NCBI GenBank assembly: GCA_035438985.1
Contig: DAORJK010000002.1
Location: 316,442-380,441 of the forward strand
Origin: Bacteroidia bacterium
GTDB taxonomy: Bacteria; Bacteroidota; Bacteroidia; UBA4408
DNA: 64,000 bases
Direction of reading: 5' to 3'
Shown: piece after piece, positions 1,682-17,824 of the stretch
Layout of the letters: each line of letters starts with the position of its first letter
How positions within the stretch are numbered: position 1 is the first letter of the stretch
Position numbers and translations under genes: made by a program
Notes under the pieces: generated by a model
Databases searched by the model: none
What the model was told of the DNA's origin: nothing
Seen by the model: the letters and a program-made list of their open reading frames with translations, nothing else

Positions 1682-1710
1682 AACGCACAGCTTAACGTTG
1701 TGCGTTTTTT
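1682..1710. terminator. Bidirectional rho-independent terminator shared by the convergent genes at 761-1660 and xdhC
   Basis: Hairpin 'AACGCACA-N-TGTGCGTT' flanked by an A-run upstream and a T-run downstream. The last codons of xdhC (KNAQR*) lie inside the stem. Confidence 0.6.
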
Positions 1711-2657
1711 ATTTTAATTATTTCGGCAGCAATGCTAATTGCAATTTCTTCAGGTGTTTCGCTCTTAATATCCAATCCTATTGGAGCGTGTAATTGAGAA
1801 ATTAGTTCAGAAGAAATTCCGTCTTGTAACAATTCATCCTGCAGTTTTTTTATTTTTGATTTGCTTCCCAGTACTCCTAAATAACAAAATTTCTTGTCTA
1901 TTAATTTTCTCAAAACCGCAGCATCTGTGCGATATCCATGTGTCATAACCACCAAGTAAATCATGCTGCCGGATGGAATTAACTTATCCATCTCATCAAA
2001 ATTTTTTACTTCTTCCAATCGATTAGCAAAGGTATTTTGACGCATGGTATTTAAATTTTTGCGTTCATCAATTACATGAATAAAAAAATCCAAGCGACTC
2101 ATTACTTCGCTTAAAGCAAAACTGCAATGCCCTCCGCCAATGATGTACAAAAAATTTTTATAGCCTAACTTTTCTTCATACTCCCATATTATTTCCGATT
2201 TTTTTTCGAAGCGATAATTCTGCTCCGGAATTAATTTTTCGTAAAAACAAATACCATCAGAGTTAATTTCTAATAATCCATTTTTTGTTTGTTGCAACGT
2301 ATTCAGGATGCTATGAATGTGTTTGGTATCTTTTTCTTGAATCTTGTATATAAAAATTGTTTGCTCGCCACTGCAAATCATACCACTTTGATTTCCCGGA
2401 GCCGATTTTTGATGTATTTGTTTTTTAGTAAGTGCTTTGTCTGGGAATACCTTTAATTTTTCTTTAGCAAGTTCTACTAATTTATGTTCCATGATACCAC
2501 CACCAATTGAACCATAAATTTCGGTGTATGTAACAGCCATTTTAAAACCTTGTCTTCCAGGGCTGCTTCCTTCACTTTCAAGTACACACATAAATACAAC
2601 CGGATTTTTTTTCTCCAATTGATCAGCGATAAACTGCCATAATTTTAGTTCTTTCAT
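1692..2657 (-). CDS. xdhC: Xanthine dehydrogenase accessory factor XdhC (XdhC/CoxI family, Mo-cofactor insertion)
   Basis: Translation shows the XdhC N-terminal domain and Rossmann domain ('YIIGGGHCSFALSEV...VIDER'). The ORF track starts at a TTG (2669); I prefer the ATG at 2657 ('MKELKLWQF'). Confidence 0.85.
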   Translation of the reverse strand: MKELKLWQFIADQLEKKNPVVFMCVLESEGSSPGRQGFKMAVTYTEIYGSIGGGIMEHKLVELAKEKLKVFPDKALTKKQIHQKSAPGNQSGMICSGEQTIFIYKIQEKDTKHIHSILNTLQQTKNGLLEINSDGICFYEKLIPEQNYRFEKKSEIIWEYEEKLGYKNFLYIIGGGHCSFALSEVMSRLDFFIHVIDERKNLNTMRQNTFANRLEEVKNFDEMDKLIPSGSMIYLVVMTHGYRTDAAVLRKLIDKKFCYLGVLGSKSKIKKLQDELLQDGISSELISQLHAPIGLDIKSETPEEIAISIAAEIIKIKNAQR

Positions 2658-2729
2658 CTTTAACAGCAAATAGCGAATCTAAAATTAAGTTTTCTATTTT
2701 TGTTGACAACGCAACAAGTGATTATTCCG

Positions 2730-4079
2730 ATGAAGTCAACAATATTCGCCATAAAAGGAAACAATATTCTTTGTCCGGATGGATTTAAAAAAGGTATACT
2801 GCTAATTGATGGAGCAAAAATAGTTGACTTTGTAGAGCAACTACCGGTGAACTATCAAGGAAAAATAATTGATGCTGCTGAACGAATTGTAATGCCGGGT
2901 TTAATCGATTGCCATGTGCACATCAATGAACCCGGACGCAGCCATTGGGAAGGCTTCGATACAGCCACAAAAGCAGCCGCTGCTGGGGGTATCACAAGCA
3001 TGGTCGAAATGCCGCTAAATGCTACCCCTGTTACAACTAACCGCAAAAATTTTGAAATTAAATTAAAAGCTGCCGCTAATAAATTGCATGTAAATTGTGG
3101 ATTTTGGGGAGGTGTAGTACCCGACAATGAGCATGAATTAAACGATTTACTCGAAAGCGGTGTGTTTGGATTAAAAGCATTTTTAACTCATTCGGGTATC
3201 GATGACTTTCCAAATACAACAGCATCGCATCTTCGCAATGCTTTATTAATTCTTAAGAGGCACAACAAACCATTGCTTGTACATTGTGAATTAGATGAAC
3301 CGCATCAAGATTCTCATCTGCTGGAAAAGTCACCAAACAGTTATCAGGCTTATTTAAAATCGCGACCAAAAAGTTGGGAAAACAAGGCGGTTCAATTAAT
3401 GATTGACTTATGCAGAGAGACGCAGTCAGCCGTACATTTAGTACATATTTCTTCAGCCGAAGCCTTGCCTTTAATTCGTGCAGCTAAGCTTGAAGGACTT
3501 CCGATTACAGCCGAAACTTGTCCACAGTATTTGTGCCTTTTTGCTGAAATGATTCCGGATGGAGCTACACAATATAAATGCGCACCACCCATTCGTGAAA
3601 AGCAAAACAACGAACTTTTGTGGGAAGCACTCAAAGATGGAACGCTTGATTTTATTGTAACCGATCATTCTCCTGCGCCTCCGGATATAAAGGAAACCAG
3701 CTCGGGTAATTTTGCAAAAGCATGGGGAGGTATTGCCGGATTACAATTTCTGTTGCCACTAATTTTTACTGCTGCAAATGAACGTGGATTTACTGTTGAA
3801 CAGCTAGCTAAATTAACTTCCCTGCATGTGGCACAATTTATTGGTATGGCTGAAACTAAAGGAAAGTTGCAAAAAGGATACGATGCAGATATTGTGTGTT
3901 GGGATCCAACAAAAAGTTTTACGGTTAAACAAGACTTAATTCACCACCGTCATAAAATTTGCCCTTATGAAGGAATGAACTTGTTGGGAGTTGTTGAACA
4001 ATGCTGGGTTGCAGGTGAATTGGTTTTCGATAAAGGAAATTTTTTACATTTGGAACAAGGGAAAATACTGCTTAAATAG
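2730..4079 (+). CDS. allB: Allantoinase (cyclic amidohydrolase)
   Basis: 'GLIDCHVHINEPGRSHWEGF' metal-binding motif and overall amidohydrolase/allantoinase layout, set within a purine-catabolism cluster. The ORF track starts at TTG 2700; the ATG at 2730 is more likely. Confidence 0.85.
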   Translation: MKSTIFAIKGNNILCPDGFKKGILLIDGAKIVDFVEQLPVNYQGKIIDAAERIVMPGLIDCHVHINEPGRSHWEGFDTATKAAAAGGITSMVEMPLNATPVTTNRKNFEIKLKAAANKLHVNCGFWGGVVPDNEHELNDLLESGVFGLKAFLTHSGIDDFPNTTASHLRNALLILKRHNKPLLVHCELDEPHQDSHLLEKSPNSYQAYLKSRPKSWENKAVQLMIDLCRETQSAVHLVHISSAEALPLIRAAKLEGLPITAETCPQYLCLFAEMIPDGATQYKCAPPIREKQNNELLWEALKDGTLDFIVTDHSPAPPDIKETSSGNFAKAWGGIAGLQFLLPLIFTAANERGFTVEQLAKLTSLHVAQFIGMAETKGKLQKGYDADIVCWDPTKSFTVKQDLIHHRHKICPYEGMNLLGVVEQCWVAGELVFDKGNFLHLEQGKILLK

Positions 4080-4132
4080 TAATACAGTTATTTTACCGGA
4101 TTGTAATTTAAAAGGGTTTAATTTGAATAAAT

Positions 4133-5164
4133 ATGAAAAGTGTTGTAGAAATAATAAAAGAGCAACCCAAATTTTGTAGCTATACAAATCTCGCTTCGGG
4201 ACGACTTGGAGCTGAAGCGCTGCTTTGCAGCGACGATTTTTTTGCTGAAATGCAAAATTTGGTCTTACCTGGAAGAGGGATATTTATTGCCGATAAATAC
4301 ACTGACCGCGGAAAGTGGATGGATGGATGGGAAAGCCGAAGAAAGCGAACTGAAGGTCACGATTGGTGCATTGTTAAATTGGCAACACATGGAATTATTC
4401 ACGGATTGGATATTGACACTAATTATTTTTTAGGCAACCATCCACCATTTGCTTCTGTCGAAGCTTGTACAATCAACACTAAACTGGAGGCCACATCATT
4501 GAATGATGATTCAATACAGTGGAAAGAAATTTTGCCGAAAGTAGCATTAGACGCTGGTAGCCAAAACTTTTTTGAAATTGCAGATAAATCAATTTATACT
4601 CATTTGAAGTTACACATATATCCGGATGGTGGAGTTGCTAGATTAAAAGTGTATGGGGAGGTTGTGAAAGATTGGAAAAGCCTTCAGCCAGATGAAATTG
4701 TTGATTTAGCCTCAGCACTAAATGGAGCAAAATCGGTGCTTTGCAACGATATGTTTTTTTCGCACATGGATAATTTACTCCTACCCGGACGTGGCATTAA
4801 CATGGGCGATGGTTGGGAAACCAAGCGAAACCGCACTCCCAATAATCGGGATTGGGTTATTGTTCGACTAGCCCATGCAGGTACAATAAAGCAAGTATTA
4901 ATTGATACCTGTCATTTTAAAGGAAATTATCCTGATGCTTGTATGATTGAAGGTACTACTATCAAACCGGAGGATGAATCAAAATTGACATCAACAGAAA
5001 TTAACTGGACTACAGTTTTGCCAAAAGTAAAATTGAATGCCGATTTTGAACATTATTTTGAAAAGGAAGTGGAAAATCATGGCCCTTTTACTCATGTACG
5101 ATTGTCGATTTTTCCTGATGGAGGAATTAGCCGCATGCGGTTATTTGGAAATGCTAAATTGTAG
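4133..5164 (+). CDS. alc: Allantoicase (two tandem allantoicase repeats)
   Basis: Two internal repeats, each with 'LLPGRGI...DGWE(S/T)(R/K)R.R...DW.IV(K/R)LA..G.I..(L/V)(D/I)DT..F.GN(H/Y)P'. Confidence 0.85.
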   Translation: MKSVVEIIKEQPKFCSYTNLASGRLGAEALLCSDDFFAEMQNLVLPGRGIFIADKYTDRGKWMDGWESRRKRTEGHDWCIVKLATHGIIHGLDIDTNYFLGNHPPFASVEACTINTKLEATSLNDDSIQWKEILPKVALDAGSQNFFEIADKSIYTHLKLHIYPDGGVARLKVYGEVVKDWKSLQPDEIVDLASALNGAKSVLCNDMFFSHMDNLLLPGRGINMGDGWETKRNRTPNNRDWVIVRLAHAGTIKQVLIDTCHFKGNYPDACMIEGTTIKPEDESKLTSTEINWTTVLPKVKLNADFEHYFEKEVENHGPFTHVRLSIFPDGGISRMRLFGNAKL

Positions 5165-5166
5165 AA

Positions 5167-5670
5167 ATGAAGTTAGAAGAATTTAATCAGCTATCGAAGG
5201 CAGTTGCAAGTAAGGAATTAGAGAAATGTTGCGGTGCCTCTAAATGGGTGAATTTGCTGGTCGAAAAAAGACCTTTTTTATCGATTGAAGAATTGAAAAT
5301 GGCTTCCGATGAATGCTGGCAGCAATGTGATACAAAAGACTATTTAGAAGCATTTAGTCATCATCCCAAAATAGGAGACCGCTCCTCCCTGGAGCAGAAA
5401 TTTGCCTCTACGCATAAATGGGCATCTAGCGAGCAATCAAGTGTTTTGGATGCTAACACTAATATAATTGATCAACTGGCTAAAGGAAATGAAGCATATG
5501 AACATAAATTTGGATTTATATTTATTGTTTGTGCAACCGGCAAATCAGCAGAAGAAATGCTCGACTTATTGACACAAAGATTAACCAATGCGCCGGAAAA
5601 AGAAATACAGATTGCCGCCGCAGAACAACAAAAAATAACCCATATTCGAATTAATAAACTACTGGAATGA
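5167..5670 (+). CDS. uraD: OHCU decarboxylase (2-oxo-4-hydroxy-4-carboxy-5-ureidoimidazoline decarboxylase)
   Basis: 'CCGASKWV' and 'AFSHHPKIGD' motifs typical of OHCU decarboxylase. Starts 3 nt after the allantoicase stop. Confidence 0.8.
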   Translation: MKLEEFNQLSKAVASKELEKCCGASKWVNLLVEKRPFLSIEELKMASDECWQQCDTKDYLEAFSHHPKIGDRSSLEQKFASTHKWASSEQSSVLDANTNIIDQLAKGNEAYEHKFGFIFIVCATGKSAEEMLDLLTQRLTNAPEKEIQIAAAEQQKITHIRINKLLE

Positions 5671-6005
5671 GTCAACTTACTACCCATATTTTAGATACCT
5701 GTTTAGGAAAACCTGCTGAGGGAATTGAAGTTCATCTCGCACAAAAAAATTCTGGAGAATGGAACGTTATTTCCAAAGGAATTTCAAACAAAGATGGAAG
5801 AATCACTGACTTACTTTCGGACAAAGTAATTTTAGCTCCGGGAATATACCGTCTTCAATTCGAAACTGGCGCATATTTTAAAAGACTTCAAACCACTGCA
5901 TTTTATCCTTCTGTTAGCATTGAATTTGAAATAAGCGATGCATCGCATTACCATGTTCCCTTGTTGTTAAACCCATATGGATATAGCACCTACAGAGGAT
6001 CTTGA
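5667..6005 (+). CDS. uraH: 5-hydroxyisourate hydrolase (transthyretin-like)
   Basis: 'LTTHILDT..GKPAEGI' N-terminus and C-terminal 'YRGS' signature. Overlaps uraD by 4 nt (ATGA). Confidence 0.88.
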   Translation: MSQLTTHILDTCLGKPAEGIEVHLAQKNSGEWNVISKGISNKDGRITDLLSDKVILAPGIYRLQFETGAYFKRLQTTAFYPSVSIEFEISDASHYHVPLLLNPYGYSTYRGS

Positions 6006-6033
6006 TGATTAATAAAAACAAAAAAACAATACG

Positions 6034-7464
6034 ATGAAGTTAACTATTCCTGAAAAAGAAAAGCTTGAGATATTAAATGAATTAAAATTAGCCAACCTTG
6101 CATTTCAAGCTGTGTATCCCGGCGATCTGCCACATCGTCAACCGGTACATACTGTTTATGGTGGAGCTAATTTGTTTAAAAGCGATAGTACCGTTAAAAT
6201 GGGAAAAGCTGCTTTCAAAAGTTTTATCAACAATGCCCCCAATTTCGCCATATTAGCCAAGGTGCTTGAATTAAAGGGTCATGCAAGTTTACCGGATACA
6301 GAAGCAGAGGTAATGGTTTTGGAGGAACGTTTGAATAAATTAAGCGATGAGCAGCGTAAATTAGAGCTGGCATGGCTTCCTTACACGGTTTATAATAAGA
6401 TTAAAGCCAAATTGCAAACTGAAGCAGTGGAAGATTTTAGAATCGATTTTGAGGATGGATTTGGAAATCGTCCAGATGATGAAGAAGATGCTACGGCTGT
6501 TACAGCAGCCACCGAATTAGCAAAAGGAATGGCAGATAAAACGATACCTCCATTTATTGGCATCCGTATTAAGCCATTTACCGAAGATTTAAAGTACCGC
6601 GGCGTTCGAACGCTCGATCTTTTTGTGAGTACCTTATTGGAAAAAAGTGGAGGAATATTGCCTCCAAATTTTGTGGTAATGTTACCCAAAGTTACGATTC
6701 CGGAACAAGTTGAAACCATCGTTAAATTTTTTGAATTACTTGAAAAGGCTCATCAATTGCCCGATGGTTCTCTTAAAATGGAGATGATGGTGGAAGCAAC
6801 ACAAGCAGTTATGGATGCAGATGGGAAAAATCCGCTTCTTAAATTAATTAGAGCCGGAAAGGGACGTTGCATTGCAGCGCATTTTGGAACCTATGATTAT
6901 ACAGCCTCCTGCAATATAACTGCACGTTATCAAACCATGGATCATCCGGTATGCGATTTTGCACATCACATGACCCGTGTTGCTTTGGGAGGTACCGGCA
7001 TCATGCTTAGCGATGGAGCAACCAATGTAATGCCGGTTGGTCCACACCGAGGTGATTCACTCACACTGGAACAGGAAATTGAAAATAGAAGGGTTGTACA
7101 CAACGCTTGGAAACTAGGGTATGGACACACCATGCATTCCTTGATTAATGGATTTTATCAGGGATGGGATTTAAATCCGGCTCAGTTTCCTATGCGCTAT
7201 GCTGCCACTTATACTTTCTTTTTGGAGAGTTATGAAGACGCTGCAGTACGCTTGCGAAATTTTGTTGAAAAGGCTGCTCAGGCAACACTTTCAGGAGATG
7301 TATTTGACGATGCAGCAACCGGACAAGGTTTACTGAATTATTTTTTACGTGCGTTAAATTGTGGTGCCATTACTGAAAAAGAAGTTCTTGCAACAGGTTT
7401 AACCATTGAAGAAATCCGTAGTCGCTCGTTTTATAAAATTTTAGTTGGCAGACGAAAAAAATAA
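6034..7464 (+). CDS. 476-aa CitE/HpcH-HpaI/malate-synthase-superfamily TIM-barrel-like protein; role in the purine cluster unknown
   Basis: Motifs line up with citrate-lyase-beta / malyl-CoA-lyase active-site elements: 'DFRIDFEDGFG' (D-x-E-D metal site), 'IGIRIKP', 'VVMLPKVTIPEQV', 'MEMMVEATQAV', 'GTYDYTAS'. A C-terminal extension of about 150 aa has no recognisable domain. Confidence 0.5.
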   Translation: MKLTIPEKEKLEILNELKLANLAFQAVYPGDLPHRQPVHTVYGGANLFKSDSTVKMGKAAFKSFINNAPNFAILAKVLELKGHASLPDTEAEVMVLEERLNKLSDEQRKLELAWLPYTVYNKIKAKLQTEAVEDFRIDFEDGFGNRPDDEEDATAVTAATELAKGMADKTIPPFIGIRIKPFTEDLKYRGVRTLDLFVSTLLEKSGGILPPNFVVMLPKVTIPEQVETIVKFFELLEKAHQLPDGSLKMEMMVEATQAVMDADGKNPLLKLIRAGKGRCIAAHFGTYDYTASCNITARYQTMDHPVCDFAHHMTRVALGGTGIMLSDGATNVMPVGPHRGDSLTLEQEIENRRVVHNAWKLGYGHTMHSLINGFYQGWDLNPAQFPMRYAATYTFFLESYEDAAVRLRNFVEKAAQATLSGDVFDDAATGQGLLNYFLRALNCGAITEKEVLATGLTIEEIRSRSFYKILVGRRKK

Positions 7465-7475
7465 TTCGCTTCTGA

Positions 7476-9725
7476 CTAAGCGTATAAATTCATCAGTATT
7501 TTTTCGGGAGTTAGGGGTGCACTTAATTCCATTGTATGCGAAGGGTTAAATGCCAACACTGCATTGCGCAGCGCAAAGTAAGCGCCAATACCATACATTA
7601 AAGGTGGTTCACCAACTGCTTTCGATTTAAAAATCGCTAGATCACTTCCTTTGGTTTTTAAAGGGTGGATTGTAATTTCTTTTGGAACCGAATAAATGTC
7701 GGGAACTTTATAGGTACTTAAAGCATTCGAAAGTAATTTACCCTCTTTGTTGTAAACAACTTCTTCCATTGTCATCCATCCAATTCCCTGCACTAAACCA
7801 CCTTCAATTTGACCTTTATCAATAAAGGGATTCATGCTTTCGCCATAATCGTGCACTATTTTTACAGCATCCGTTTCGTAGGTGCCACGCAAACAATCAA
7901 CTGTTACTATAAATAAAGCTGTTCCGTAAACATGGTAAGCAAATGGATGACCTTTTTCCTTTCCGGAATCAAAGTTTATTTCAGGAGTTGCATAGTGTGC
8001 ACTTTCAGAAAGGCTTTCGCGATTGAGGTAACAGGACATAACCAATTTATTCCAAGTAATTTCGGTCGGAACATTTTTATGCAGTACGCATTCATCCTTT
8101 AATTCAAGATCTTTTTCAAGTGCGCTTAATTCTATTGCAGCACGCTTTAGAAGACGTTTTTTTATTGCTTCGCAGGCAAGTTGTGTTGCTTTTCCATTTA
8201 AGTCGGCAGTCGCGCTTGCTGCTGAAGGAGAGGTGTTTGCAACACGGGTAGTATTGGTTGTTTCGACTTTTATTTTTGAGCTAGATATGGAGAATATATT
8301 GGCTGCAACCTGCAACATTTTTGTATTAACACCTTGCCCCATTTCAACAGCTCCCGTGCTAATTCCCACGCTACCATCCGTATACACATGCACCAAGGCA
8401 CGCGCCTGATTCATGAGTGTTTTAGTAAAAGAAATTCCAAAGCAAATGGGCATAATTGCCATCCCTTTTTTTATCAGCAAATTACTTTTATTAAACTCTT
8501 TAACTGCAGTTCTTTCTTTCTCAAATTGAAATAAATTAGTTGCTGTATCCCAACAATTATGAGCTTCACAACCATTTACAATTTGTCCGTAATGAAATAC
8601 ATTTCCATCTTGTAATAAATTTTTTTGCTGAATAACACTGGCATCTATTCCTAGATTTTCAGCTGCTTTAGCAATAGCTGCCTCAATTACAAACATTCCT
8701 TGTGGTCCTCCAAATCCACGGAAAGCGGTATTAGGAGGTAAGTTGGTCTTGCAACTAAAAGCAGTTACCTTAGTATGCGGAATACTATAACTGTTGGTAG
8801 CATGAAATAACGTGCGCTCGAGCACAGCCGGCGATAAATCAGCAGCAGCTCCTGCATTCTGATAAAAAGTAGCTTCATATGCTATTATTTTTAAATCGCT
8901 CGACAATCCTAATTTAAAATCGCTTGAATAAGGATGACGTTTTCCGGTCATACGCAAATCGGCCATTCTATCGAGTATGCATTTTACAGGACGCTTTAAT
9001 TTTTTGCAGGCAAGTGCTGCCATAACAGCCCAAGTAGTTGCTTGGTCCTCTTTACCTCCAAAGCCTCCACCTAAGCGTGTTACATCAACTTCAATTTTAT
9101 GCATGGGTACACCCAGCACTTTTGCTGCTGTTCGTTGCACTGCAGTGGGACCTTGAGTAGAAGAGTAAATTTTTATACTTCCATTTTCAAGTGGTAAGGC
9201 ATAGGCACCTTGTGTTTCAATATACAAATGTTCTTGTCCTCCCGACTCAGCAATGCCCTCAATTATATGCGTGCAATGTGACCATTGAGATGCAGTATCA
9301 CCAATTTGAAAAGTACGTGGTGGTACTATCAATTTATTATTTTTTGCAGCTTCCCTGGCATCCGTGATGGGCTCAAGTATTTCAATGTCAACTTGTATTA
9401 GTTTTGCTGCAGCTTCAGCTATTTCCTGACTTTTCGCAACAACTAACGCTATGGGCATTCCACAAAAATGGACCTCATGTTCAGCAAGTAATTCTTCATC
9501 CGGAATAATGCCGCCAATTTGATTTTCTCCGGGAATATCAAGATAAGTCAGCACGGCTTCAACTCCAGGATAAGATTTAGCTGCATCAATTGACAAATGG
9601 CGTATTTTTCCGTGTGCAATTTTTGAATCGTAGGCAACAGCATACAATGTTCCTTGTTGCAATGCAATGTCATCTGCATAAATGGATTCTCCTCGGGTAT
9701 GTGAAAAAGAGTCAATATTTTTCAT
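7476..9725 (-). CDS. xdhB: Xanthine dehydrogenase / aldehyde oxidase family molybdopterin-binding subunit
   Basis: a/b-hammerhead N-terminus, 'GGGFGGK' and 'FRGFGGPQG', and a 'GQG..TK' Mo-site motif across 749 aa. Confidence 0.88.
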   Translation of the reverse strand: MKNIDSFSHTRGESIYADDIALQQGTLYAVAYDSKIAHGKIRHLSIDAAKSYPGVEAVLTYLDIPGENQIGGIIPDEELLAEHEVHFCGMPIALVVAKSQEIAEAAAKLIQVDIEILEPITDAREAAKNNKLIVPPRTFQIGDTASQWSHCTHIIEGIAESGGQEHLYIETQGAYALPLENGSIKIYSSTQGPTAVQRTAAKVLGVPMHKIEVDVTRLGGGFGGKEDQATTWAVMAALACKKLKRPVKCILDRMADLRMTGKRHPYSSDFKLGLSSDLKIIAYEATFYQNAGAAADLSPAVLERTLFHATNSYSIPHTKVTAFSCKTNLPPNTAFRGFGGPQGMFVIEAAIAKAAENLGIDASVIQQKNLLQDGNVFHYGQIVNGCEAHNCWDTATNLFQFEKERTAVKEFNKSNLLIKKGMAIMPICFGISFTKTLMNQARALVHVYTDGSVGISTGAVEMGQGVNTKMLQVAANIFSISSSKIKVETTNTTRVANTSPSAASATADLNGKATQLACEAIKKRLLKRAAIELSALEKDLELKDECVLHKNVPTEITWNKLVMSCYLNRESLSESAHYATPEINFDSGKEKGHPFAYHVYGTALFIVTVDCLRGTYETDAVKIVHDYGESMNPFIDKGQIEGGLVQGIGWMTMEEVVYNKEGKLLSNALSTYKVPDIYSVPKEITIHPLKTKGSDLAIFKSKAVGEPPLMYGIGAYFALRNAVLAFNPSHTMELSAPLTPEKILMNLYA

Positions 9726-9913: not shown

Positions 9914-10705
9914 TTATAAATCAGCAGCTTTTGCAATAAGTTCAGCAACATCCAATACCTCGGTAGCCTGATCCTGTTCTTTAAGTTTAACACCGTCACG
10001 TAACATGGTCATGCAAAATGGACAGCCTGTTGCAATAACTTGAGGCTGTAATTCAAGTGCTTCTTCTGTACGTTCGATATTTACTTCTTTATTACCTTTT
10101 TCGGCTTCTTTAAACATTTGCGCACCACCTGCACCACAACATAATCCGTTGGCACGAGAACGTTTCATTTCGACTAAGGCAGCATCCAGTTTACCCAACA
10201 AAGCGCGTGGAGCTTCGTATACATCATTTCCTCTACCTAAATAGCAGGGATCGTGAAAGGTTATTTTCTTACCTGAAAAATTTCCTCCTTCTACTTTGAT
10301 TCTTCCGGAGTCTAACAATTGCTGAATTAATTGAGTGTGATGGATTACTTCAAAGTTTCCTCCAAGTTCAGGGTATTCATTTTTTAAGGTATTAAAGCAA
10401 TGCGGACAACCGGTAACTATTTTTTTTACTTCATAACCATTTAATAGTTGAATGTTGGTCATTGCCTGCATTTGAAATAAAAATTCGTTTCCTGCTCTTT
10501 TTGCTGGATCCCCGGTACAGGATTCTTCGGTTCCTAATACCGCAAATTTTACCTCGGCTTTTGTTAAAATGCGAACAATTGCTTTGGTAATTTTTTTTGC
10601 TCTGTCGTCAAAACTACCTGCGCAACCTACCCAAAATAAAATTTCAGGAACTTCTCCTTTAGCAAGGCATTCAGCCATAGTTGGTACTACTAGTTCTTTC
10701 TCCAT
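9914..10705 (-). CDS. HdrD/GlpC/LutA-like (Fe-S)-binding protein with two CCG cysteine-rich domains
   Basis: Two CCG domains: 'VGCAGSFDD...ESCTGDP...GCPHC' and 'HDPCY...LCCGAGG...GCPFC'. Confidence 0.8.
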   Translation of the reverse strand: MEKELVVPTMAECLAKGEVPEILFWVGCAGSFDDRAKKITKAIVRILTKAEVKFAVLGTEESCTGDPAKRAGNEFLFQMQAMTNIQLLNGYEVKKIVTGCPHCFNTLKNEYPELGGNFEVIHHTQLIQQLLDSGRIKVEGGNFSGKKITFHDPCYLGRGNDVYEAPRALLGKLDAALVEMKRSRANGLCCGAGGAQMFKEAEKGNKEVNIERTEEALELQPQVIATGCPFCMTMLRDGVKLKEQDQATEVLDVAELIAKAADL

Positions 10706-10706
10706 G

Positions 10707-11453
10707 TTAGTTTATTTCAAAATCACAGTTTAGCGTAATTGATGCTGTTTTTCGTTTTGAAGAGGTATTAAAAGTACCTCCCCAGGAATAATCTTCTCCT
10801 GCATTTTGTCCTACTATTTGAAAGACTCCCATGCTTGCATTTTTTAAATTGCCCAGTTTATTTCCAGCGTTTTCGGCAATGCTTTGTGCTCTGCTGCGAG
10901 CATCCTTTGTAGCTTCCGAAATCATTTCCACTTTTAAGGCAGCTAATTTAGTGTAATAGTAACGCGGATTTTCGGAGTAGAATTCAATTCCCTGATTAAT
11001 TAATTCGGTTACTTCTCGCGAAAGATTTTCTATTTTTTCTACTTCCTTTGATTCAATGGTGATGCTTTGATTTAATGTATACCCAATGAATTTTCGTCCG
11101 GTTAACCGACCTTCATTGTCAAATAATTCATCAAAATTTTTAGAAATTGTAACTGAAGAAAAAATAACTTCCTTTTCACTTACACCTTTGGATGTGAAGT
11201 ATTTTTGAATTAATTCGCGATCGTTGTTAAGCAACTGATATGCTTGTTTTAATTCAAAAGAGGAGCGGCTAAAACTACCTGTCCAAACGACCAGATCGGA
11301 AACAAAATCGCGAGAACCCAAACCGGTTACTGAAATTTTTTGTGTGTAATTATTCCTGTTTTTAAAGGCACTTCCTAAAATTGCTGCTGCACACACAACT
11401 GCTAATGCAATAAGAAAAGTAGAGATGTACTTTTTATTTTCCATGTTATTCAT
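10707..11453 (-). CDS. SIMPL (DUF541, BP26/YggE-like) domain protein, membrane-anchored and periplasm-facing
   Basis: N-terminal TM 'ISTFLIALAVVCAAAILG' followed by SIMPL-like domain architecture. Overlaps the upstream gene by 8 nt and sits 1 nt from the downstream gene. Confidence 0.6.
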   Translation of the reverse strand: MNNMENKKYISTFLIALAVVCAAAILGSAFKNRNNYTQKISVTGLGSRDFVSDLVVWTGSFSRSSFELKQAYQLLNNDRELIQKYFTSKGVSEKEVIFSSVTISKNFDELFDNEGRLTGRKFIGYTLNQSITIESKEVEKIENLSREVTELINQGIEFYSENPRYYYTKLAALKVEMISEATKDARSRAQSIAENAGNKLGNLKNASMGVFQIVGQNAGEDYSWGGTFNTSSKRKTASITLNCDFEIN

Positions 11454-12813
11454 TTTTCCAATTTAATCGATCGGCCGGTGAAAATTGCCAAGGTGCTCCA
11501 TTGTTTTCAATATTGGTAAACATAGCATTTAATGCAGCGGGAGCATCCGATTGCTCCATAACGAGGTATCTCCGTAAATCGATAATGATTGAAAGAGGAT
11601 CAATATTAATCGGACAAGATTCAGTACACGCATTACACGTGGTGCATGCCCAAAGTTCTTCAGCAGTGATATAGTCTCCAACTAAAGCTTTTGAATCGGA
11701 ATAATTTACTCCATTTTTATCTATTCCTTTTCCAAGTTCTTCCATACGGTCGCGTGTATCCATCATAATTTTACGTGGCGACAAAAGTTTACCGGTTTGA
11801 TTAGCCGGACAATTACTCGTGCAACGCCCGCATTCTGTGCAACTGTAAGCGTCCATTAATTGTTTCCAACTTAAATCAGGAACATCTTTTGCTCCGAATT
11901 TAGCAGGTGGCGCATCGCTAACAGGAGGCACTGCGCTGGGATCAAGCATTAATTTTACTTCATTGGTAACTGATTCAAGATTGGAGAATTTTCCTTTAGG
12001 TTTTAAATTAGAATAAAATACAGTTGGGAATGCAAGTAAAATATGGAAGTGTTTGGAATAGGGGATGTAATTTAAAAAGGCAATAATTCCAAGTATATGA
12101 AACCACCAACAAACGCGTTCAATGTAATGCAATGCTAAAGGATTGCTCGGTAAAAATCCAGTTAAATAGGCGCTTACAGGAAAATACAGTCCTTTTCCAG
12201 CTTGACTTTGTTCACCAAATATTTTAGTCGCAGCTTCGGCAAATTCGGGCAATAGAATGTCCCCGCTTAATTTACCATAGCTCATCATAACTCCATCGGC
12301 AGCATTCATAATTAAAAATGCCGACATCAATACAATTTCGGTAGTCAATATTATTGCAGCATCATTTCTGGGCCAACCTTCTAACTCTTTATTCATAAAG
12401 CGTTTTAGTTTCAGCACATACCTGCGAATGAGGAATATAGCACAACCTAAAATTACAAGTAATGCAAGGAATTCGAACGAGGCAATTAACAAGTAATAAA
12501 AGTACCCCATAAATGCAAAAATGCGATGCGTACCAAAAATGCCATCAATAATTATTTCGAGTACTTCAATGTTAATTATGATAAATCCTAGATACACAAA
12601 TATGTGCAAGATACCGGCAACCGGTCGTACTACCATTTTACTCTGACCTATGGCAACTTTTGCCATCAATTTCCATCGTTCATTCAAATTGTCGGAAATA
12701 TCTAAAGCTCTGCCTAGCAGAATATTTCTTCTTATTTTCTGAGCATTTCGGGCAAACCAATAAATACCACCTGCCAGAAGCACACAAAATATCAGGTTAT
12801 CTATCCAATTCAT
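11446..12813 (-). CDS. Membrane-bound Fe-S oxidoreductase: an N-terminal polytopic (NarI/HdrE/DsrM-like, His-rich) domain fused to a 2x[4Fe-4S] ferredoxin domain
   Basis: About 5 predicted TM helices with conserved His, then 'CTECGRCTSNCP' and 'CTTCNACTESCP' cluster motifs. Confidence 0.8.
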   Translation of the reverse strand: MNWIDNLIFCVLLAGGIYWFARNAQKIRRNILLGRALDISDNLNERWKLMAKVAIGQSKMVVRPVAGILHIFVYLGFIIINIEVLEIIIDGIFGTHRIFAFMGYFYYLLIASFEFLALLVILGCAIFLIRRYVLKLKRFMNKELEGWPRNDAAIILTTEIVLMSAFLIMNAADGVMMSYGKLSGDILLPEFAEAATKIFGEQSQAGKGLYFPVSAYLTGFLPSNPLALHYIERVCWWFHILGIIAFLNYIPYSKHFHILLAFPTVFYSNLKPKGKFSNLESVTNEVKLMLDPSAVPPVSDAPPAKFGAKDVPDLSWKQLMDAYSCTECGRCTSNCPANQTGKLLSPRKIMMDTRDRMEELGKGIDKNGVNYSDSKALVGDYITAEELWACTTCNACTESCPINIDPLSIIIDLRRYLVMEQSDAPAALNAMFTNIENNGAPWQFSPADRLNWKNE

Positions 12814-12920: not shown

Positions 12921-13874
12921 TTACTTCGAATCTTTTTTGCCAAACACACTCAGGTGAACATAACGACCGGGGTGTTGATTTAAATCAATAAGTAGTTTAT
13001 CTAAATTTTTTGAAGCAGAAGTTAGGTTGTTGTAGAGTGAATCATTATTAACCAGTAAGCCTATGGAGCCTTTACCTGAATTTATTTTTGCTGCAATAAT
13101 ATCAATATTTTTTATTGCAGAGTTTGCATTGTTTATGGTAGTTGCAATGTTTGCTTTTGCTAATGAGTCGCTGATAGTGTTAAAGTTTTTGAGAATAGCC
13201 GCTAAGTCTTTATTTCCGGTTTTTAAATTTCCTGTGATGGATTCAACATTCTGTAAAATATTATCGAGTCTAACTTTTTCAGAGGCCAGCAATCCATCTG
13301 CTTGAGCGGTCATGGAATTTAAATTTTTCAAAGTGTTTTTTAAATTATTGCCACCACCTTGATTAATAATTCCATTCACGCTAGCAACTAAAGAATCAAT
13401 TGTAACAATTAATTTTTCAGCTTTGTTTTTAATAGGTAAAACCTGATCACCGATATCATCTAGCATTTTTGACTTAACATCACCTGCGAGTGTATCACCG
13501 CTTTCGGCAAATGCTTTTGAATCGCCTAGTACCAAATTAATTGCCTGAGTGCCCAATAAACCATTTGCAAATACTCGTGCAACCGTATTTTTTGGAATGG
13601 TCAAATCATTTTCTTTCAAACTAATTTCAACAATCATTTTTCCTGAATTGTCGGGATGAAAAAAAATATGATTTACCTGGCCAACAATAAATCCGTTTAT
13701 AAACACCGGATTTGCTTCCGTTAAACCGTCAACATTTTCATAAATGGCAAAAAAGTGAGTTCTATTTGTAAAAATGTTTTTTCCTTTTAAAAAGTTTAAT
13801 CCATATACCAGCAAAAAGATAGCGCCGGCTACTATCAATCCAATTTTTGCTTCTCTTGATAAGTTGAGTTTCAT
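12921..13874 (-). CDS. mlaD: MlaD/MCE-family protein (phospholipid transport substrate-binding component)
   Basis: N-terminal TM anchor and an MCE domain ('IYENVDGLTEANPVFINGFIVGQV'), followed by a long coiled/low-complexity tail. Confidence 0.75.
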   Translation of the reverse strand: MKLNLSREAKIGLIVAGAIFLLVYGLNFLKGKNIFTNRTHFFAIYENVDGLTEANPVFINGFIVGQVNHIFFHPDNSGKMIVEISLKENDLTIPKNTVARVFANGLLGTQAINLVLGDSKAFAESGDTLAGDVKSKMLDDIGDQVLPIKNKAEKLIVTIDSLVASVNGIINQGGGNNLKNTLKNLNSMTAQADGLLASEKVRLDNILQNVESITGNLKTGNKDLAAILKNFNTISDSLAKANIATTINNANSAIKNIDIIAAKINSGKGSIGLLVNNDSLYNNLTSASKNLDKLLIDLNQHPGRYVHLSVFGKKDSK

Positions 13875-13913
13875 AATTAATTCTACTTTTTTTACGGAAA
13901 AACTGAGATGAAA

Positions 13914-15170
13914 TTATTTTTTTTGCAACAACAATGCGTCTTTCATGTTAATTCGCTTACCATCTTTAAACGCCACCACAAATGCTTCTTTAAACCCACT
14001 AGCGCGCACGTCCTTTTGTAAATTCATGGCATCATTTAAATCATCGAAGTTGCCAACAGTATATTTATACATTCCATTTTCAACGTATTCTGATACTTCT
14101 TTGAGCTGTTTAAACTGATTCGAAGTTAGTGGAATTTTTTTATCTGAACTGCTAAATTGCACTTTGTAGGAAACGGCACCTTGTGCTGAATTTTCTACTA
14201 CACTACGATCTGTTTTTTTGCTCTGCACCGAATCGGCAATCTTTGTTGAATCTTCGGCAATTTTTACATCTGCAGGAACCGGTTTATTAGGCACAGGTTT
14301 CTTGTATAAATTTTCTTTGGGTTTTTCTTCTGATTTAATTTCTTGTTTTAATTCATTTCGAACGCCTTCATTTTTTTTACCATCATCAAGATCGCCTTTG
14401 TATTTGCGAAAAGCACGATAAATACTTTCAGCAATTTTTTGCTGCCCTTTATCAGTAACCATCAAGCGTTCATCTTCAGGATTTGTTAAAAAGCCTGTTT
14501 CAATTAATATACTGGGCATTGCAGTATACACCAAAACTAAAAAACCGGCTTGTTTAACTCCCCGGTCAAATCGCTTATCTACATCTCTGAATTCATCTTG
14601 AACTAAGGAAGCTATGGTTAAACTTTGCTCAAGAAATGCATTTTGATACAATGTAAAAATAATACTTGCTTCGGGCGAATTGGGATCAAACCCATCGTAT
14701 TTGGTTTTGTAATCTTTCTCTAATAATACGGATTCATTTTCTCGTTTTGCCACATCTAAATTGTCGGCGCTGCGATGTAATCCCATACTAAATGTTTCAA
14801 CTCCATAAGCATTGCTTTTGCCTGAATTGCAATGAATTGAAATAAATAAATCAGCATGATTACGATTGGCAATATTGGCGCGCTCATGCAATTCTATAAA
14901 CTCATCTTTTTCACGCGTATACACCACTTTTACATCCGGATGGTTTTCTGAAATCAACTTTCCTAATTTTAAGGCAACCGATAAAGTAACTTCCTTTTCT
15001 TTGCCCTTTCTTCCGTGACAACCGGGGTCGTGACCACCATGTCCGGCATCAATGACAATTGTTTTTAAAGCCGGATTTTTTTTCATTAGATTTCCTGCAT
15101 AGCAGTTAATTACTTGCATACAGCAAATACCTAAACATAAAATGATGGAAGTTGATGGGAGTATTTTCAA
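13914..15170 (-). CDS. N-acetylmuramoyl-L-alanine amidase (Amidase_3) with a C-terminal SPOR peptidoglycan-binding domain
   Basis: 'VIDAGHGGHDPG' Amidase_3 motif. The C-terminus 'YKVQFSSS...YKYTVGNFDDLNDAMNLQKDVRASGFKEAFVVAFKDGKRI' is SPOR-like. Confidence 0.85.
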   Translation of the reverse strand: MKILPSTSIILCLGICCMQVINCYAGNLMKKNPALKTIVIDAGHGGHDPGCHGRKGKEKEVTLSVALKLGKLISENHPDVKVVYTREKDEFIELHERANIANRNHADLFISIHCNSGKSNAYGVETFSMGLHRSADNLDVAKRENESVLLEKDYKTKYDGFDPNSPEASIIFTLYQNAFLEQSLTIASLVQDEFRDVDKRFDRGVKQAGFLVLVYTAMPSILIETGFLTNPEDERLMVTDKGQQKIAESIYRAFRKYKGDLDDGKKNEGVRNELKQEIKSEEKPKENLYKKPVPNKPVPADVKIAEDSTKIADSVQSKKTDRSVVENSAQGAVSYKVQFSSSDKKIPLTSNQFKQLKEVSEYVENGMYKYTVGNFDDLNDAMNLQKDVRASGFKEAFVVAFKDGKRINMKDALLLQKK

Positions 15171-15277
15171 TTTTTACAAGGCTACTTTAACACTAATTAC
15201 AATACTGTCAATTAACAATTTTCGTTAGCTTTGACGCTTTATTTTATCTGTAGTTTTTACAAAAATAGGATTAAAAG

Positions 15278-17824
15278 TTGGGGCATAAACGCGTACTGAA
15301 ACATTTTATTATCTGTGCATTGTTGATTACTCGAACAATGGTTTTTGCCGCAGTTCCTGCTGATGTCTTTTTAAATTCAGACTTGGATTCGCTGAGTGCC
15401 TTGGCGCAACCTGTTTCAAAGTCTGATTCAGCTGTCGTTTCAAAAAGTGCGTTAAATTCTAAAGTCACTTATTCAGCCCGCGATTCAATTCGTTTTGAAG
15501 TGGAAAATCAAAAAGTGTACCTCTATGGTGATGCCCACGTTACTTATGAAGATACCAAATTAGATGCGGAACAAATTATATTGGATACGAAAAACAATTT
15601 TGTTACCGCCACCGGAATAATTGATTCAACCGGTAAACGTATTGGAGATCCGAAATTTGCAGATGGAGGACAGGAGTTTTCGTCGCGTGGAATGAGCTAT
15701 AATTTTGAAACCAAGAAGGGTAAAATCAAAGATGTTATTACTAAAGAAGGTGATGGAATTTTGCACGGTGAGCAAGTAAAACGCGACAGCAGCAATAATT
15801 TTTTTGTTAGACACGGTAAATACACCACCTGCGATTTGGAACATCCGCATTACTATATTTCCGCTTCTAAGGTGCGCGTTATTCCGGATGATAAAATTAT
15901 TACCGGTCCGGCTTATTTAGTTATTGCCGATGTACCCACCCCTTTGATGTTGCCTTTTGGTTTTTTCCCAAATAAAAAAGGTCAAAAGTCGGGCATACTA
16001 ATTCCCACTTATGGTGAGTCTATAAATCAGGGTTTCTTTTTAACAGATGGAGGATATTATTTTGGAATAAGTGATAAAGTGGATTTGGCTGTAAGAGGAG
16101 ATATTTACAGTAAAGGAAGTTGGGGGGCTAAAGCAATTAGTAATTATGCTAAGCGCTATAAATACAATGGCAATATTAGTGTAAGTTATGCCAATCAAAA
16201 ATTTGGTGAAAAGTACCTGGACGATTATAACGAATTGCAAAATTTTAGAGTCAACTGGACACATAACCAAGATGCTAAAGCAAGGCCCGATCGGAGATTT
16301 TCGGCAAGTGTGAATGCCGGATCAAGCGGATTTGGCAGGTATCAGAATACAACTTCCAGACAATACTTACAAAACGAGTTAAGTTCTTCTATTACCTTTA
16401 ATAAAAGTTGGATAGGAAAGCCGTATAATTTTTCGGCTGCTATTAATCACAATCAAAACACACTTTTAAAAACCATAAGTATTAAATTACCTGAACTTAC
16501 TTTTAATGTGGCACGAATACTTCCGTTTCAAAAAGTAGAAACAAAAAATGGATTTCGATGGCTAAAAACATTAGGCTTCAGTTATACAACAAATTTGCGC
16601 AATCAAATAGATAGCTACGATAGTTTGTTATTCACGAAAAAATTAAGCTCACAAATGAAAAACGGAATGAATCATAGTATTCCGATAAGTACTTCTATAA
16701 AATTGTTTAAGTACTTTAATCTTAATCCATCGTTTACTTACAACGAAAATTGGTATTTGCAAACGATACGTAAGCGTTATTCCTATGATGAAGAAGGTAT
16801 AGGAGTTCTAAAAATAGATACGGTTTCAAAGTTTCAAGCTTCACGTGATTATGCTTTTAATACAAATCTTACTACTAATTTATACGGTTTGTATCAACTC
16901 AAACGAGGAAAATTAAAAGCGGTTAGACATGTATTAACTCCAACAATTGGATATTCCTATACACCCGGCTTAGGAAAATATATTTATGGACCATGGGGAA
17001 GTAATGGAACTAAATCAAGGTACTCTATTTATGATGGAACCTTATTCGGCGGTCCCAACCCAAATAAATCCAGTGCGATTGTTTTTGGACTCACCAACAA
17101 CCTCGAAATGAAAGTGAAATCTAAAAAAGATACGATTTCGGGCTTTAAGAAAATCAGCATTTTCGATTATCTGGGAGTGAATTCATCTTACAACATGATT
17201 GCCGATTCATTTAAACTAGCACCTTTTAATTTAGGCATGCGCACTAAATTGCTCCAAAATGTTGACTTAAATGTGAATGCCGTGATGGATCCATATCGCC
17301 TCGACTCGGCAGGAATTCGTAGAAAGGAGTATATATGGACAGAAAAAAATTCACTTGGAAGATTGATTAGTAGCTCCGCCTCCATTAGTTTTGGTTTGAA
17401 AAGTAAAGAGAAAATTGCCACAACTACTAGTAATGAAAACACAAACAATCCCGGTGTAATTCCCGGCACTCTCGAAGATGATTATGTTGATTTTAGTGTT
17501 CCCTGGAGTTTAAATGTGAGCTATAATTTATTGTATTCCAAACCGGCACTCGAAAAAACAATCACTCAAACACTCAGTTTTTACGGAGATATTAGCATCA
17601 CACAAAACTGGAAAGTATCACTTAATTCAGGATTTGATTTTGAGACAAAAAAGATCTCTTATACCTCTGTAAATATTCACCGTGATTTACATTGCTGGGA
17701 AATGCATTTAAATTTAGTACCGCTTGGGCCTCGAAGAAGTTACAGTTTTGAATTACGTGTAAAATCAAGTGTACTTTCGGATCTCAAAATTCCGCGAAAG
17801 CAGGATTGGTATGATTTAAAGTAG
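15278..17824 (+). CDS. lptD: Putative LPS-assembly outer-membrane protein LptD (OstA-like N-domain plus a large beta-barrel)
   Basis: The N-terminal OstA/LptA-like fold region ('VTYSARDSIRFEVENQKVYLYGDAHVTYED') is followed by roughly 650 aa with beta-barrel character. Exact start is uncertain. Confidence 0.7.
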   Translation: MGHKRVLKHFIICALLITRTMVFAAVPADVFLNSDLDSLSALAQPVSKSDSAVVSKSALNSKVTYSARDSIRFEVENQKVYLYGDAHVTYEDTKLDAEQIILDTKNNFVTATGIIDSTGKRIGDPKFADGGQEFSSRGMSYNFETKKGKIKDVITKEGDGILHGEQVKRDSSNNFFVRHGKYTTCDLEHPHYYISASKVRVIPDDKIITGPAYLVIADVPTPLMLPFGFFPNKKGQKSGILIPTYGESINQGFFLTDGGYYFGISDKVDLAVRGDIYSKGSWGAKAISNYAKRYKYNGNISVSYANQKFGEKYLDDYNELQNFRVNWTHNQDAKARPDRRFSASVNAGSSGFGRYQNTTSRQYLQNELSSSITFNKSWIGKPYNFSAAINHNQNTLLKTISIKLPELTFNVARILPFQKVETKNGFRWLKTLGFSYTTNLRNQIDSYDSLLFTKKLSSQMKNGMNHSIPISTSIKLFKYFNLNPSFTYNENWYLQTIRKRYSYDEEGIGVLKIDTVSKFQASRDYAFNTNLTTNLYGLYQLKRGKLKAVRHVLTPTIGYSYTPGLGKYIYGPWGSNGTKSRYSIYDGTLFGGPNPNKSSAIVFGLTNNLEMKVKSKKDTISGFKKISIFDYLGVNSSYNMIADSFKLAPFNLGMRTKLLQNVDLNVNAVMDPYRLDSAGIRRKEYIWTEKNSLGRLISSSASISFGLKSKEKIATTTSNENTNNPGVIPGTLEDDYVDFSVPWSLNVSYNLLYSKPALEKTITQTLSFYGDISITQNWKVSLNSGFDFETKKISYTSVNIHRDLHCWEMHLNLVPLGPRRSYSFELRVKSSVLSDLKIPRKQDWYDLK

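Follow-up and report, generated by a model that had tools for sequence, protein, structure and literature searches.

We report that two iron-sulfur (Fe-S) proteins encoded on the minus strand in a metagenome-assembled genome of an uncultured Bacteroidia bacterium are likely the two halves of a gene-split electron-transfer-flavoprotein (ETF):menaquinone oxidoreductase of the EtfD/EMO type, as judged by homology and conserved cofactor ligands. The genes lie in a 64,000-nucleotide stretch of contig DAORJK010000002.1 (assembly GCA_035438985.1), here called the window. One encodes a membrane protein ending in a ferredoxin domain, which we call memFd, and the other a protein with two CCG domains, the CCG protein; between them sits a gene for a SIMPL (DUF541) protein. 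An earlier interpretation made from the DNA letters alone, the sequence-only reading, took the three genes for an uncharacterized redox module whose substrate and electron donor were unknown and in which SIMPL was a functional partner. Its domain-level part stands. The rest does not: memFd and the CCG protein together match a split homolog of EtfD/EMO, for which the donor would by homology be ETF, and SIMPL is missing from all 80 orthologous loci that we compared, each from a different GTDB species of Bacteroidota. We read the locus as a split-gene variant of a known, recently solved enzyme family to which a lineage-specific passenger gene has been added.

Two Fe-S proteins match consecutive parts of EtfD

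Both Fe-S proteins match, colinearly, a single solved chain of 1042 residues, 9ojn_A, which carries the label 'iron-sulfur-binding reductase'. PDB entry 9OJN holds EtfD of Mycobacterium smegmatis, solved by cryo-electron microscopy (Courbon et al., EMBO J 2026, PMC13083937). In a phmmer search, memFd residues 41-357 align to chain residues 49-333 and memFd residues 379-455 to chain residues 401-477 (E=1e-41, 35% identity over aligned columns), and a profile built from 73 memFd homologs strengthens the match to E=1e-54. The next-best sequence match of memFd, to HdrC, is far weaker (E=9e-6). The CCG protein takes up where memFd ends, its residues 7-262 aligning to chain residues 482-746 with E=2e-78 and 53% identity; its next-best match among solved structures is HdrB at E=0.005. 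Because both genes are colinear with one polypeptide, the split is placed at the linker between EtfD residues 477 and 482. The sequence-only reading had offered membership of the two Fe-S proteins in a known complex as a test against itself, and we find that both match one known enzyme.

Structural comparison of memFd gives the same answer. An AlphaFold2 model (mean predicted local distance difference test score, pLDDT, 81) contains five long membrane helices together with two short linking ones, and in a Foldseek search with this model no entry other than 9ojn matched significantly (E=1e-12; query-normalised TM 0.71). The N-terminal 300 residues gave nothing useful in a Pfam scan, even at E up to 10, and Foldseek matches to NarI chains were not significant (E ~1.4), so the NarI-like nature of this domain is reached only through the EtfD structure and the literature. 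The C-terminal part is plain: residues 316-405 form a 4Fe-4S dicluster domain (Pfam Fer4_8, E=7e-11), whose two motifs, C325xxC328xxC331xxxC335P and C390xxC393xxC396xxxC400P, are invariant in the 73 homologs. The same 73 sequences also keep histidines H70, H96, H239, H255 and H257 without exception. These helices, histidines and clusters bear out the five or so histidine-containing helices and two CxxCxxCxxxCP clusters described earlier for this gene, and the description of it as a cytochrome b anchor of the NarI/HdrE-like kind joined to a 2x[4Fe-4S] ferredoxin domain was correct.

The third gene was likewise correctly described as encoding two CCG domains of the HdrD/HdrB-like kind (PF02754 twice, E=1e-31). 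Its first CCG motif reads C-T-G, T64 replacing the second cysteine, as in EtfD.

The residues that hold the cofactors are conserved across the split. Using the ligand list of the structure paper (PMC13083937), mapped by script through HMMER alignments, we found that 23 of the 24 residues named there are identical in the window proteins (Table 1). The axial pair of heme b in EtfD aligns to memFd histidines that are invariant in the 73 homologs, and all eight cubane-cluster cysteines of memFd align to ligands of clusters D3 and D4 and are likewise invariant. In the CCG protein, the ligands of the noncubane cluster D2 are invariant in 73/73 Bacteroidota sequences, and 68-70 of the 73 retain the D1 positions, a variability that echoes the published variability of the distal cluster. 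About five Bacteroidota CCG proteins have Ser, Asp or Ala at D1 cysteine positions and keep every D2 ligand, as has been reported for FadF and DgcB. The ligands suggest that D1 of the window protein would be of the linear [3Fe-4S] type.

Table 1. Cofactor-site residues of M. smegmatis EtfD and the aligned residues of the window proteins
Site	M. smegmatis EtfD	Window protein
Heme b axial ligands	His78, His241	memFd H70, H257
Heme propionate contacts	Arg137, Arg306	memFd R131, R330
Heme propionate contact	Arg150	memFd E145 (not conserved)
Menaquinone-site residues	Phe85, Phe230	memFd F77, F246
Cubane cluster D4	Cys301, 304, 307, 422	memFd C325, C328, C331, C400
Cubane cluster D3	Cys311, 412, 415, 418	memFd C335, C390, C393, C396
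Linear [3Fe-4S] cluster D1	Cys503, 538, 581, 584	CCG protein C28, C63, C100, C103
Thr replacing Hdr cysteine	Thr539	CCG protein T64
Noncubane [4Fe-4S] cluster D2	Cys637, 672, 673, 709, 712, His583	CCG protein C154, C189, C190, C228, C231, H102

Three further memFd histidines bear on the number of hemes. H239 aligns to M. smegmatis H223, the equivalent of H233 of the Syntrophus EMO, which is a distal-heme ligand; H255 aligns to M. smegmatis EtfD His239, and H96 has no aligned histidine there. The distal-heme histidine is conserved across the EMO family even in members without a distal heme (bioRxiv 10.64898/2026.08.18.745454). memFd may bind more than one heme, and the Bacteroidota enzyme could carry either one or three. 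Separately, memFd has an insertion of ~14 residues that most of its Bacteroidota homologs lack, in the loop joining membrane helices 4 and 5 (residues ~183-215). The insertion is also found in three relatives (P0010, P0016 and P0026) and does not track with the presence of SIMPL.

A two-gene form conserved across Bacteroidota

In 77 of the 80 loci the membrane gene is followed, on its own strand, by the CCG gene, and the point of the split, in the linker that leads from the ferredoxin domain to the first CCG domain, is conserved across Bacteroidota. This layout differs from the single chain of both solved members of the family, M. smegmatis EtfD and Syntrophus aciditrophicus EMO. We therefore regard the window pair as a split variant and do not treat the architecture as defining for the catalytic family. 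When a library clustered at 50% identity is searched with the CCG protein, its closest relatives are chiefly fused forms: 32 of the top 43 are proteins of 650-750 residues with the CCG part C-terminal from about residue 430, at up to 61% identity to the window protein. With the two-gene form in nearly all of the loci and mostly fused relatives, the arrangement looks like a gene fission conserved across the phylum. In some relatives (L082, L083 [P0016, 71% identity] and L072) the memFd gene has no CCG gene within the flanks, so the halves can be unlinked in the genome; in the first of these it is followed by a convergent pyrophosphatase gene.

In a published BLAST-based co-occurrence survey, Actinobacteria held 98% of the EtfD homologs (Beites et al. 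2021, PMC8593149). The survey required more than 75% coverage, a filter that split halves would fail, which explains that figure. Bacteroidota are unmentioned in the two EtfD papers and the EMO preprint (PMC13083937, PMC8593149 and bioRxiv 10.64898/2026.08.18.745454); our literature search was noisy, and an earlier description of the split form is possible. We consider the finding mildly new: a split EtfD form that is conserved across a phylum, its annotation so far no more than "(Fe-S)-binding protein". The pair, which has over 8000 database homologs, bears this label or "heterodisulfide reductase subunit C" and can now be read as EtfD/EMO halves, which would provide a candidate link from acyl-CoA dehydrogenases and ETF to the respiratory chain in menaquinone-using Bacteroidota. 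The split also shows that the linker between the ferredoxin and CCG parts of EtfD can be broken without losing any cofactor ligand, and separate expression of the halves might help structural and drug-target work on the mycobacterial enzyme.

In the window itself (Table 2), ORF (open reading frame) calls, the Pfam scan and the junction sequences confirmed the three minus-strand ORFs with the coordinates, domains and tight spacing given by the sequence-only reading. The 1-nucleotide gap between the SIMPL stop and the CCG start is as described. The 8-nucleotide overlap between memFd and SIMPL holds only for the first ATG of SIMPL; with the second ATG (M4), which NCBI annotates and which starts at 11444 to give a 245-residue form, a 1-nucleotide gap is left instead. 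In two close relatives (L081 and L089) the memFd/SIMPL junction measures 46-48 nucleotides and the 1-nucleotide SIMPL/CCG junction is kept. Given such tight junctions, the three genes are probably co-transcribed; the junctions carry no information on what SIMPL does. The same genes are also found on contig DAORJD010000004.1 of GCA_035438825.1.

Table 2. Features of the locus, in window coordinates
Feature	Position	Strand	Description
memFd, putative EtfD N-terminal half	11446..12813	-	455 residues; five-helix cytochrome b membrane domain and 2x[4Fe-4S] ferredoxin (HdrC-like) domain
SIMPL/DUF541 protein	10707..11453	-	248 residues; PF04402; N-terminal hydrophobic segment; lineage-specific insertion between the putative EtfD halves
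CCG protein, putative EtfD C-terminal half	9914..10705	-	263 residues; double-CCG, HdrB-like; PF02754 x2
XdhB-type xanthine dehydrogenase molybdopterin subunit	7476..9725	-	TIGR02965; neighbor only in the window's clade; possibly co-transcribed; membership in the system hypothetical
MlaD/MCE-family protein	12921..13874	-	PF02470; upstream neighbor; context only

Predicted electron path

Judging from the solved M. smegmatis homolog, acyl-CoA dehydrogenases would load ETF (EtfAB), whose genes would lie elsewhere in the genome, and the reduced ETF would dock on the cytoplasmic CCG subunit. Electrons would then pass through the linear [3Fe-4S] cluster, the noncubane [4Fe-4S] cluster or both, proceed along the ferredoxin domain's two cubane [4Fe-4S] clusters, and reach menaquinone by way of a b heme in the five-helix membrane domain. 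Menaquinones are the respiratory quinones of Bacteroidota. From homology and the conserved ligands we infer that the Bacteroidota pair carries out ETF-dependent menaquinone reduction. ETF as donor, menaquinone as acceptor and the direction of flow are all carried over by analogy, and the presence of ETF in this genome is assumed.

The analogy draws on a well-studied mycobacterial protein. EtfD feeds electrons from fatty-acid oxidation into the menaquinone pool in mycobacteria (PMC8593149, PMC13083937). Beta-oxidation in M. tuberculosis depends on etfD; the mutant stalls at the acyl-CoA dehydrogenase step, an acyl-CoA oxidase rescues it, and EtfD co-immunoprecipitates EtfB (Beites et al. 2021, PMC8593149). 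The solved M. smegmatis structure shows an electron wire that runs through D1, D2, D3, D4 and heme b to menaquinone, and an activity assay accompanies it (PMC13083937). The Syntrophus EMO has been solved in complex with ETF, and a passage of the preprint that describes it, citing Agne et al. 2021, places EMO in all menaquinone- or methylmenaquinone-containing organisms able to grow on fatty acids (bioRxiv 10.64898/2026.08.18.745454). The sequence-only reading had proposed that the two Fe-S genes together make a quinone-linked membrane module, which by homology is correct; EtfD is described as overlaying on HdrDE (PMC13083937).

Several observations weigh against assigning this function to the window pair. 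No ETF or acyl-CoA dehydrogenase was recognized among the window ORFs scanned or the called genes of the 10 kb to the left of the window, and across the 80 loci the pair never has a linked ETF gene. Functional tests come only from Actinobacteria and Syntrophus (PMC13083937, PMC8593149, bioRxiv 10.64898/2026.08.18.745454), and family members serve other ETF-linked pathways, such as dimethylglycine catabolism in the case of DgcB (PMC13083937). One of the heme propionate contacts, Arg150, is replaced by a glutamate in memFd. Finally, the window and four further contigs of its clade all share the 1-nucleotide SIMPL/CCG junction, which would also fit a clade-specific role for SIMPL. As to the missing flavoprotein, M. 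tuberculosis etfBA (rv3029c/rv3028c) and etfD (rv0338c) are far apart in numbering (PMC8593149), so the absence of a flavoprotein near the pair is normal for EtfD. The sequence-only reading had found neither a flavoprotein nor a dehydrogenase partner nearby: the first half of that statement agrees with the window ORFs scanned, none of which encodes a flavoprotein, and the second half does not, as an XdhB-type gene lies 188 nucleotides downstream of the CCG gene.

Comparison with characterized relatives

Mycobacterial EtfD (Rv0338c/MSMEG_0690, PDB 9OJN, also called EMO or IspQ) has the same domain order as the window pair. The heme b histidines, the cubane clusters, the D1 ligands with their Cys-to-Thr change, the D2 ligands with their histidine and the menaquinone-site phenylalanines are all conserved between the two, and in mycobacteria too the ETF genes are not adjacent. 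The mycobacterial protein is a single chain with a disordered C-terminal tail of ~265 residues, whereas the window enzyme would consist of two polypeptides without the tail. The window pair further differs by the unconserved Arg150, by an extra loop that its clade carries between helices 4 and 5, and by the SIMPL gene between its halves.

The ETF:methylmenaquinone oxidoreductase of S. aciditrophicus (EMO, SYN_02638) belongs to the same family and shares the three-domain plan of the window pair. The three family-conserved heme-ligand histidines are present in the window, H70 and H257 as the proximal pair and H239 aligned to the distal ligand. The Syntrophus enzyme differs: it is one chain, carries three hemes, a twin-heme unit among them, has a [4Fe-5S] distal cluster and works in a reverse redox loop. 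The window protein instead shows the EtfD-type motif for a linear cluster. Bacillus subtilis FadF and Pseudomonas aeruginosa DgcB are EtfD homologs in ETF-dependent beta-oxidation and dimethylglycine catabolism, respectively (PMC13083937). Both lack the D1 cysteines, which the window CCG protein keeps, and both appear as single full-length sequences in the preprint alignment (BSU37180 and PA5399), in contrast to the split window enzyme.

The SIMPL gene as a lineage-specific insertion

The SIMPL gene is a clear member of the SIMPL/DUF541 family, which includes Brucella BP26 and Escherichia coli YggE (PF04402, E=3e-26, 93.2 bits against a gathering cut-off of 25.2); the 'oxidative stress defense protein' model for YggE matches it weakly (E=0.003, far below cut-off). 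We know of no biochemical function for this family. A preprint on Bacteroides LolB names DUF541 incidentally, in one row of a pull-down table. The sequence-only reading had linked SIMPL functionally to the Fe-S proteins and had named conservation of the gene neighborhood as a way to test the link. A tblastn search with the window SIMPL protein (E up to 1e-3) found it in 0/80 of the orthologous loci. Orthologs ~60% identical to it occur in Flavobacterium, Sporocytophaga, Chitinophagales and Bacteroidales, so the gene would be detectable in these loci if it were present. The slot between the membrane and CCG genes is empty in most of them, the gap being shorter than 200 nucleotides in 51/77. In ~20 Flavobacteriales-type loci (among them L003, L004, L010, L011, L023, L032, L034, L036, L039 and L040) it is filled by a HAD-superfamily ORF of ~145 residues with a DIDGT motif (PF24694, PF03767), and in one locus by two large unrelated genes.

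The order memFd-SIMPL-CCG is found only in close relatives of the window, namely L081, L089, L090 and one short contig (P0144), where identity reaches at least about 80% for the membrane protein and 76% or more for SIMPL. In a relative at 71% identity, neither a SIMPL nor a CCG gene adjoins the membrane gene. SIMPL orthologs at 58-66% identity sit elsewhere in 4/4 contexts examined, beside genes for kynureninase and DAHP synthase, for DinB and a metallo-beta-lactamase, for Dus, and for a His operon and YkuD, and no Fe-S gene was found near the orthologs in these four contexts. Presence in one clade only, with the slot empty or otherwise filled elsewhere, leads us to regard SIMPL as a recent lineage-specific insertion into a tolerant slot. 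We infer that it is a passenger gene with no role in the enzyme, not a conserved component, and this neighborhood comparison goes against the functional link that had been proposed. SIMPL gains no functional clue from this locus.

Alternative explanations

The same comparison bears on the specific hypothesis of the sequence-only reading, that SIMPL is a periplasm-facing partner or substrate-binding subunit of a new trans-membrane relay for disulfide or quinone-coupled repair. The conserved 1-nucleotide gap to the CCG gene across the clade is what such a partnership could leave behind, the N-terminal hydrophobic segment of SIMPL fits an extracytoplasmic location, and possible redox-sensing roles have been noted for EtfD (PMC8593149). 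That location, however, would probably put SIMPL on the other side of the membrane from the redox clusters, which by homology are cytoplasmic. Together with the absence of a detectable SIMPL gene from all 80 orthologous loci outside the clade, the four unrelated contexts of its orthologs, and a slot that holds an unrelated HAD-like gene in Flavobacteriales-type loci and nothing in most others, this leaves the hypothesis very unlikely and, by the neighborhood data, already largely refuted.

Still less likely, in our view, is that the pair is a true menaquinol:disulfide oxidoreductase of the HdrDE/DsrMK type, with thiol/disulfide chemistry at the CCG clusters, and not an ETF acceptor. HdrDE, HdrABC (through HdrB and HdrC) and DsrMK share ancestry with the window pair and its combination of membrane cytochrome b, ferredoxin domain and CCG domains; the domain set is that of HdrE plus HdrC plus HdrB, and in HdrBC, too, the ferredoxin and CCG parts are on separate polypeptides. 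The Joint Genome Institute (JGI) labels homologs 'heterodisulfide reductase subunit C', and the NCBIfam models for HdrC, TfrB, DsrK and HmcF match, all far below their cut-offs. Yet the window ferredoxin domain is fused to the membrane subunit and not to the CCG subunit, and similarity to Hdr proteins is marginal: the E-values for EtfD (2e-78) and HdrB (0.005) lie over 70 orders of magnitude apart. The degenerate first CCG motif (CTG) comes with the EtfD-type four-cysteine ligation of a linear [3Fe-4S] cluster, and His102 completes the noncubane coordination as it does in EtfD (PMC13083937). No DsrC-like or other thiol-carrier gene was seen among the recurrent neighbors in the 80 loci or the window ORFs scanned. 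The authors of the EtfD structure describe the clusters matching the CCG sites as fully coordinated, shielded and non-catalytic (PMC13083937), so the thiol/disulfide chemistry suggested by the sequence-only reading is disfavored, and the window clusters would by homology form an electron wire, not a disulfide-reducing site.

Other known systems were also considered and rejected. For LutABC, GlpABC and GlcDEF, no partner genes were found in the operon, the scanned window ORFs or the recurrent neighbors of the 80 loci, and the NCBIfam models for GlpC, GlcF and LutB scored far below their cut-offs. TfrB, DsrMK, HmcEF and TmcBC likewise had NCBIfam scores far below cut-off and no partner genes.

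An XdhB-type gene downstream

The gene downstream of the pair raises the possibility that the split EtfD-like module takes electrons from a donor other than, or besides, ETF, with XdhB as the candidate in this clade and a quinone-linked xanthine dehydrogenase as the outcome. XdhB (786 bits to TIGR02965, against a cut-off of 849.5) lies on the same strand as the CCG gene, and we found no terminator-like site in the 188-nucleotide gap between them. This order is kept in L081, L089 and L090. XdhB orthologs in two other loci (L091 and L092, 70% and 76% identity) have a canonical XdhA 7 nucleotides upstream, with Fer2, Fer2_2, FAD_binding_5 and CO_deh_flav_C domains, whereas tblastn with these two orthologous XdhA proteins as queries detected none in the 64-kb window (E up to 1), the 10 kb to its left or the clade loci. 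Immunoprecipitation in M. tuberculosis also suggests several EtfD interactors (PMC8593149). Against this, the adjacency of XdhB to the CCG gene is restricted to the window's clade, XdhA may simply sit elsewhere in the genome, and the AT-rich gap could hold a promoter; our sigma-70 promoter scan gave fewer hits than shuffled controls, and sigma-70 is a poor model for Bacteroidota promoters. In the xanthine oxidase family, moreover, electrons leave the molybdenum subunit for a small, tightly bound subunit, which takes them up on its [2Fe-2S] clusters. We regard XdhB as a highly improbable donor. Its placement without an adjacent XdhA we take as an unexplained rearrangement, with XdhA most likely encoded elsewhere.

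Least probable of all is a combination in which the clade's split EtfD operon has recruited both SIMPL and XdhB (the latter without adjacent XdhA), xanthine electrons entering the EtfD wire and ending on menaquinone while SIMPL acts as an envelope-side accessory. The positive support for clade-specific recruitment of either gene is adjacency. If it were true, recruited XdhB and EtfD would make a quinone-linked xanthine dehydrogenase of new composition.

Neighboring genes

Returning to the putative split EtfD, no dehydrogenase, ETF or flavoprotein recurs among the neighbors of the pair in the 80 loci. Directly downstream of the CCG gene and on the same strand, 59 of the 80 loci carry an ORF of ~160 residues without a Pfam or NCBIfam match (for example, L073:8213-8695 (+)). 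It is absent from the window, where tblastn gave no match below E=3. As a possible conserved accessory of the split EtfD, this ORF has a stronger claim than SIMPL.

Beside XdhB, the window carries a purine-catabolism cluster (1692-7464) that encodes XdhC, an amidohydrolase, allantoicase, OHCU decarboxylase, HIU hydrolase and a DUF6986 protein; no urate oxidase was recognized among the ORFs scanned. The DUF6986 protein (6034-7464 (+), 476 residues, E=7e-189) has a faint malyl-CoA-lyase/HpcH-like signal and lies next to XdhB here and in the clade loci.

Upstream of the pair in Bacteroidota, the genes that recur encode LptD, an N-acetylmuramoyl-L-alanine amidase and an MlaD/MCE protein. There is no obvious functional reason for these cell-envelope genes to stand beside a respiratory enzyme. 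In the window they span 12921-17824 in the order LptD (on the opposite strand), amidase, MlaD/MCE and the putative EtfD N-terminal half, and their clusters (3-5) recur in 37-43 of the 80 loci. The MlaD/MCE cluster (cluster 3) takes the same relative position in 43/80, and it is also found in L081 and L089.

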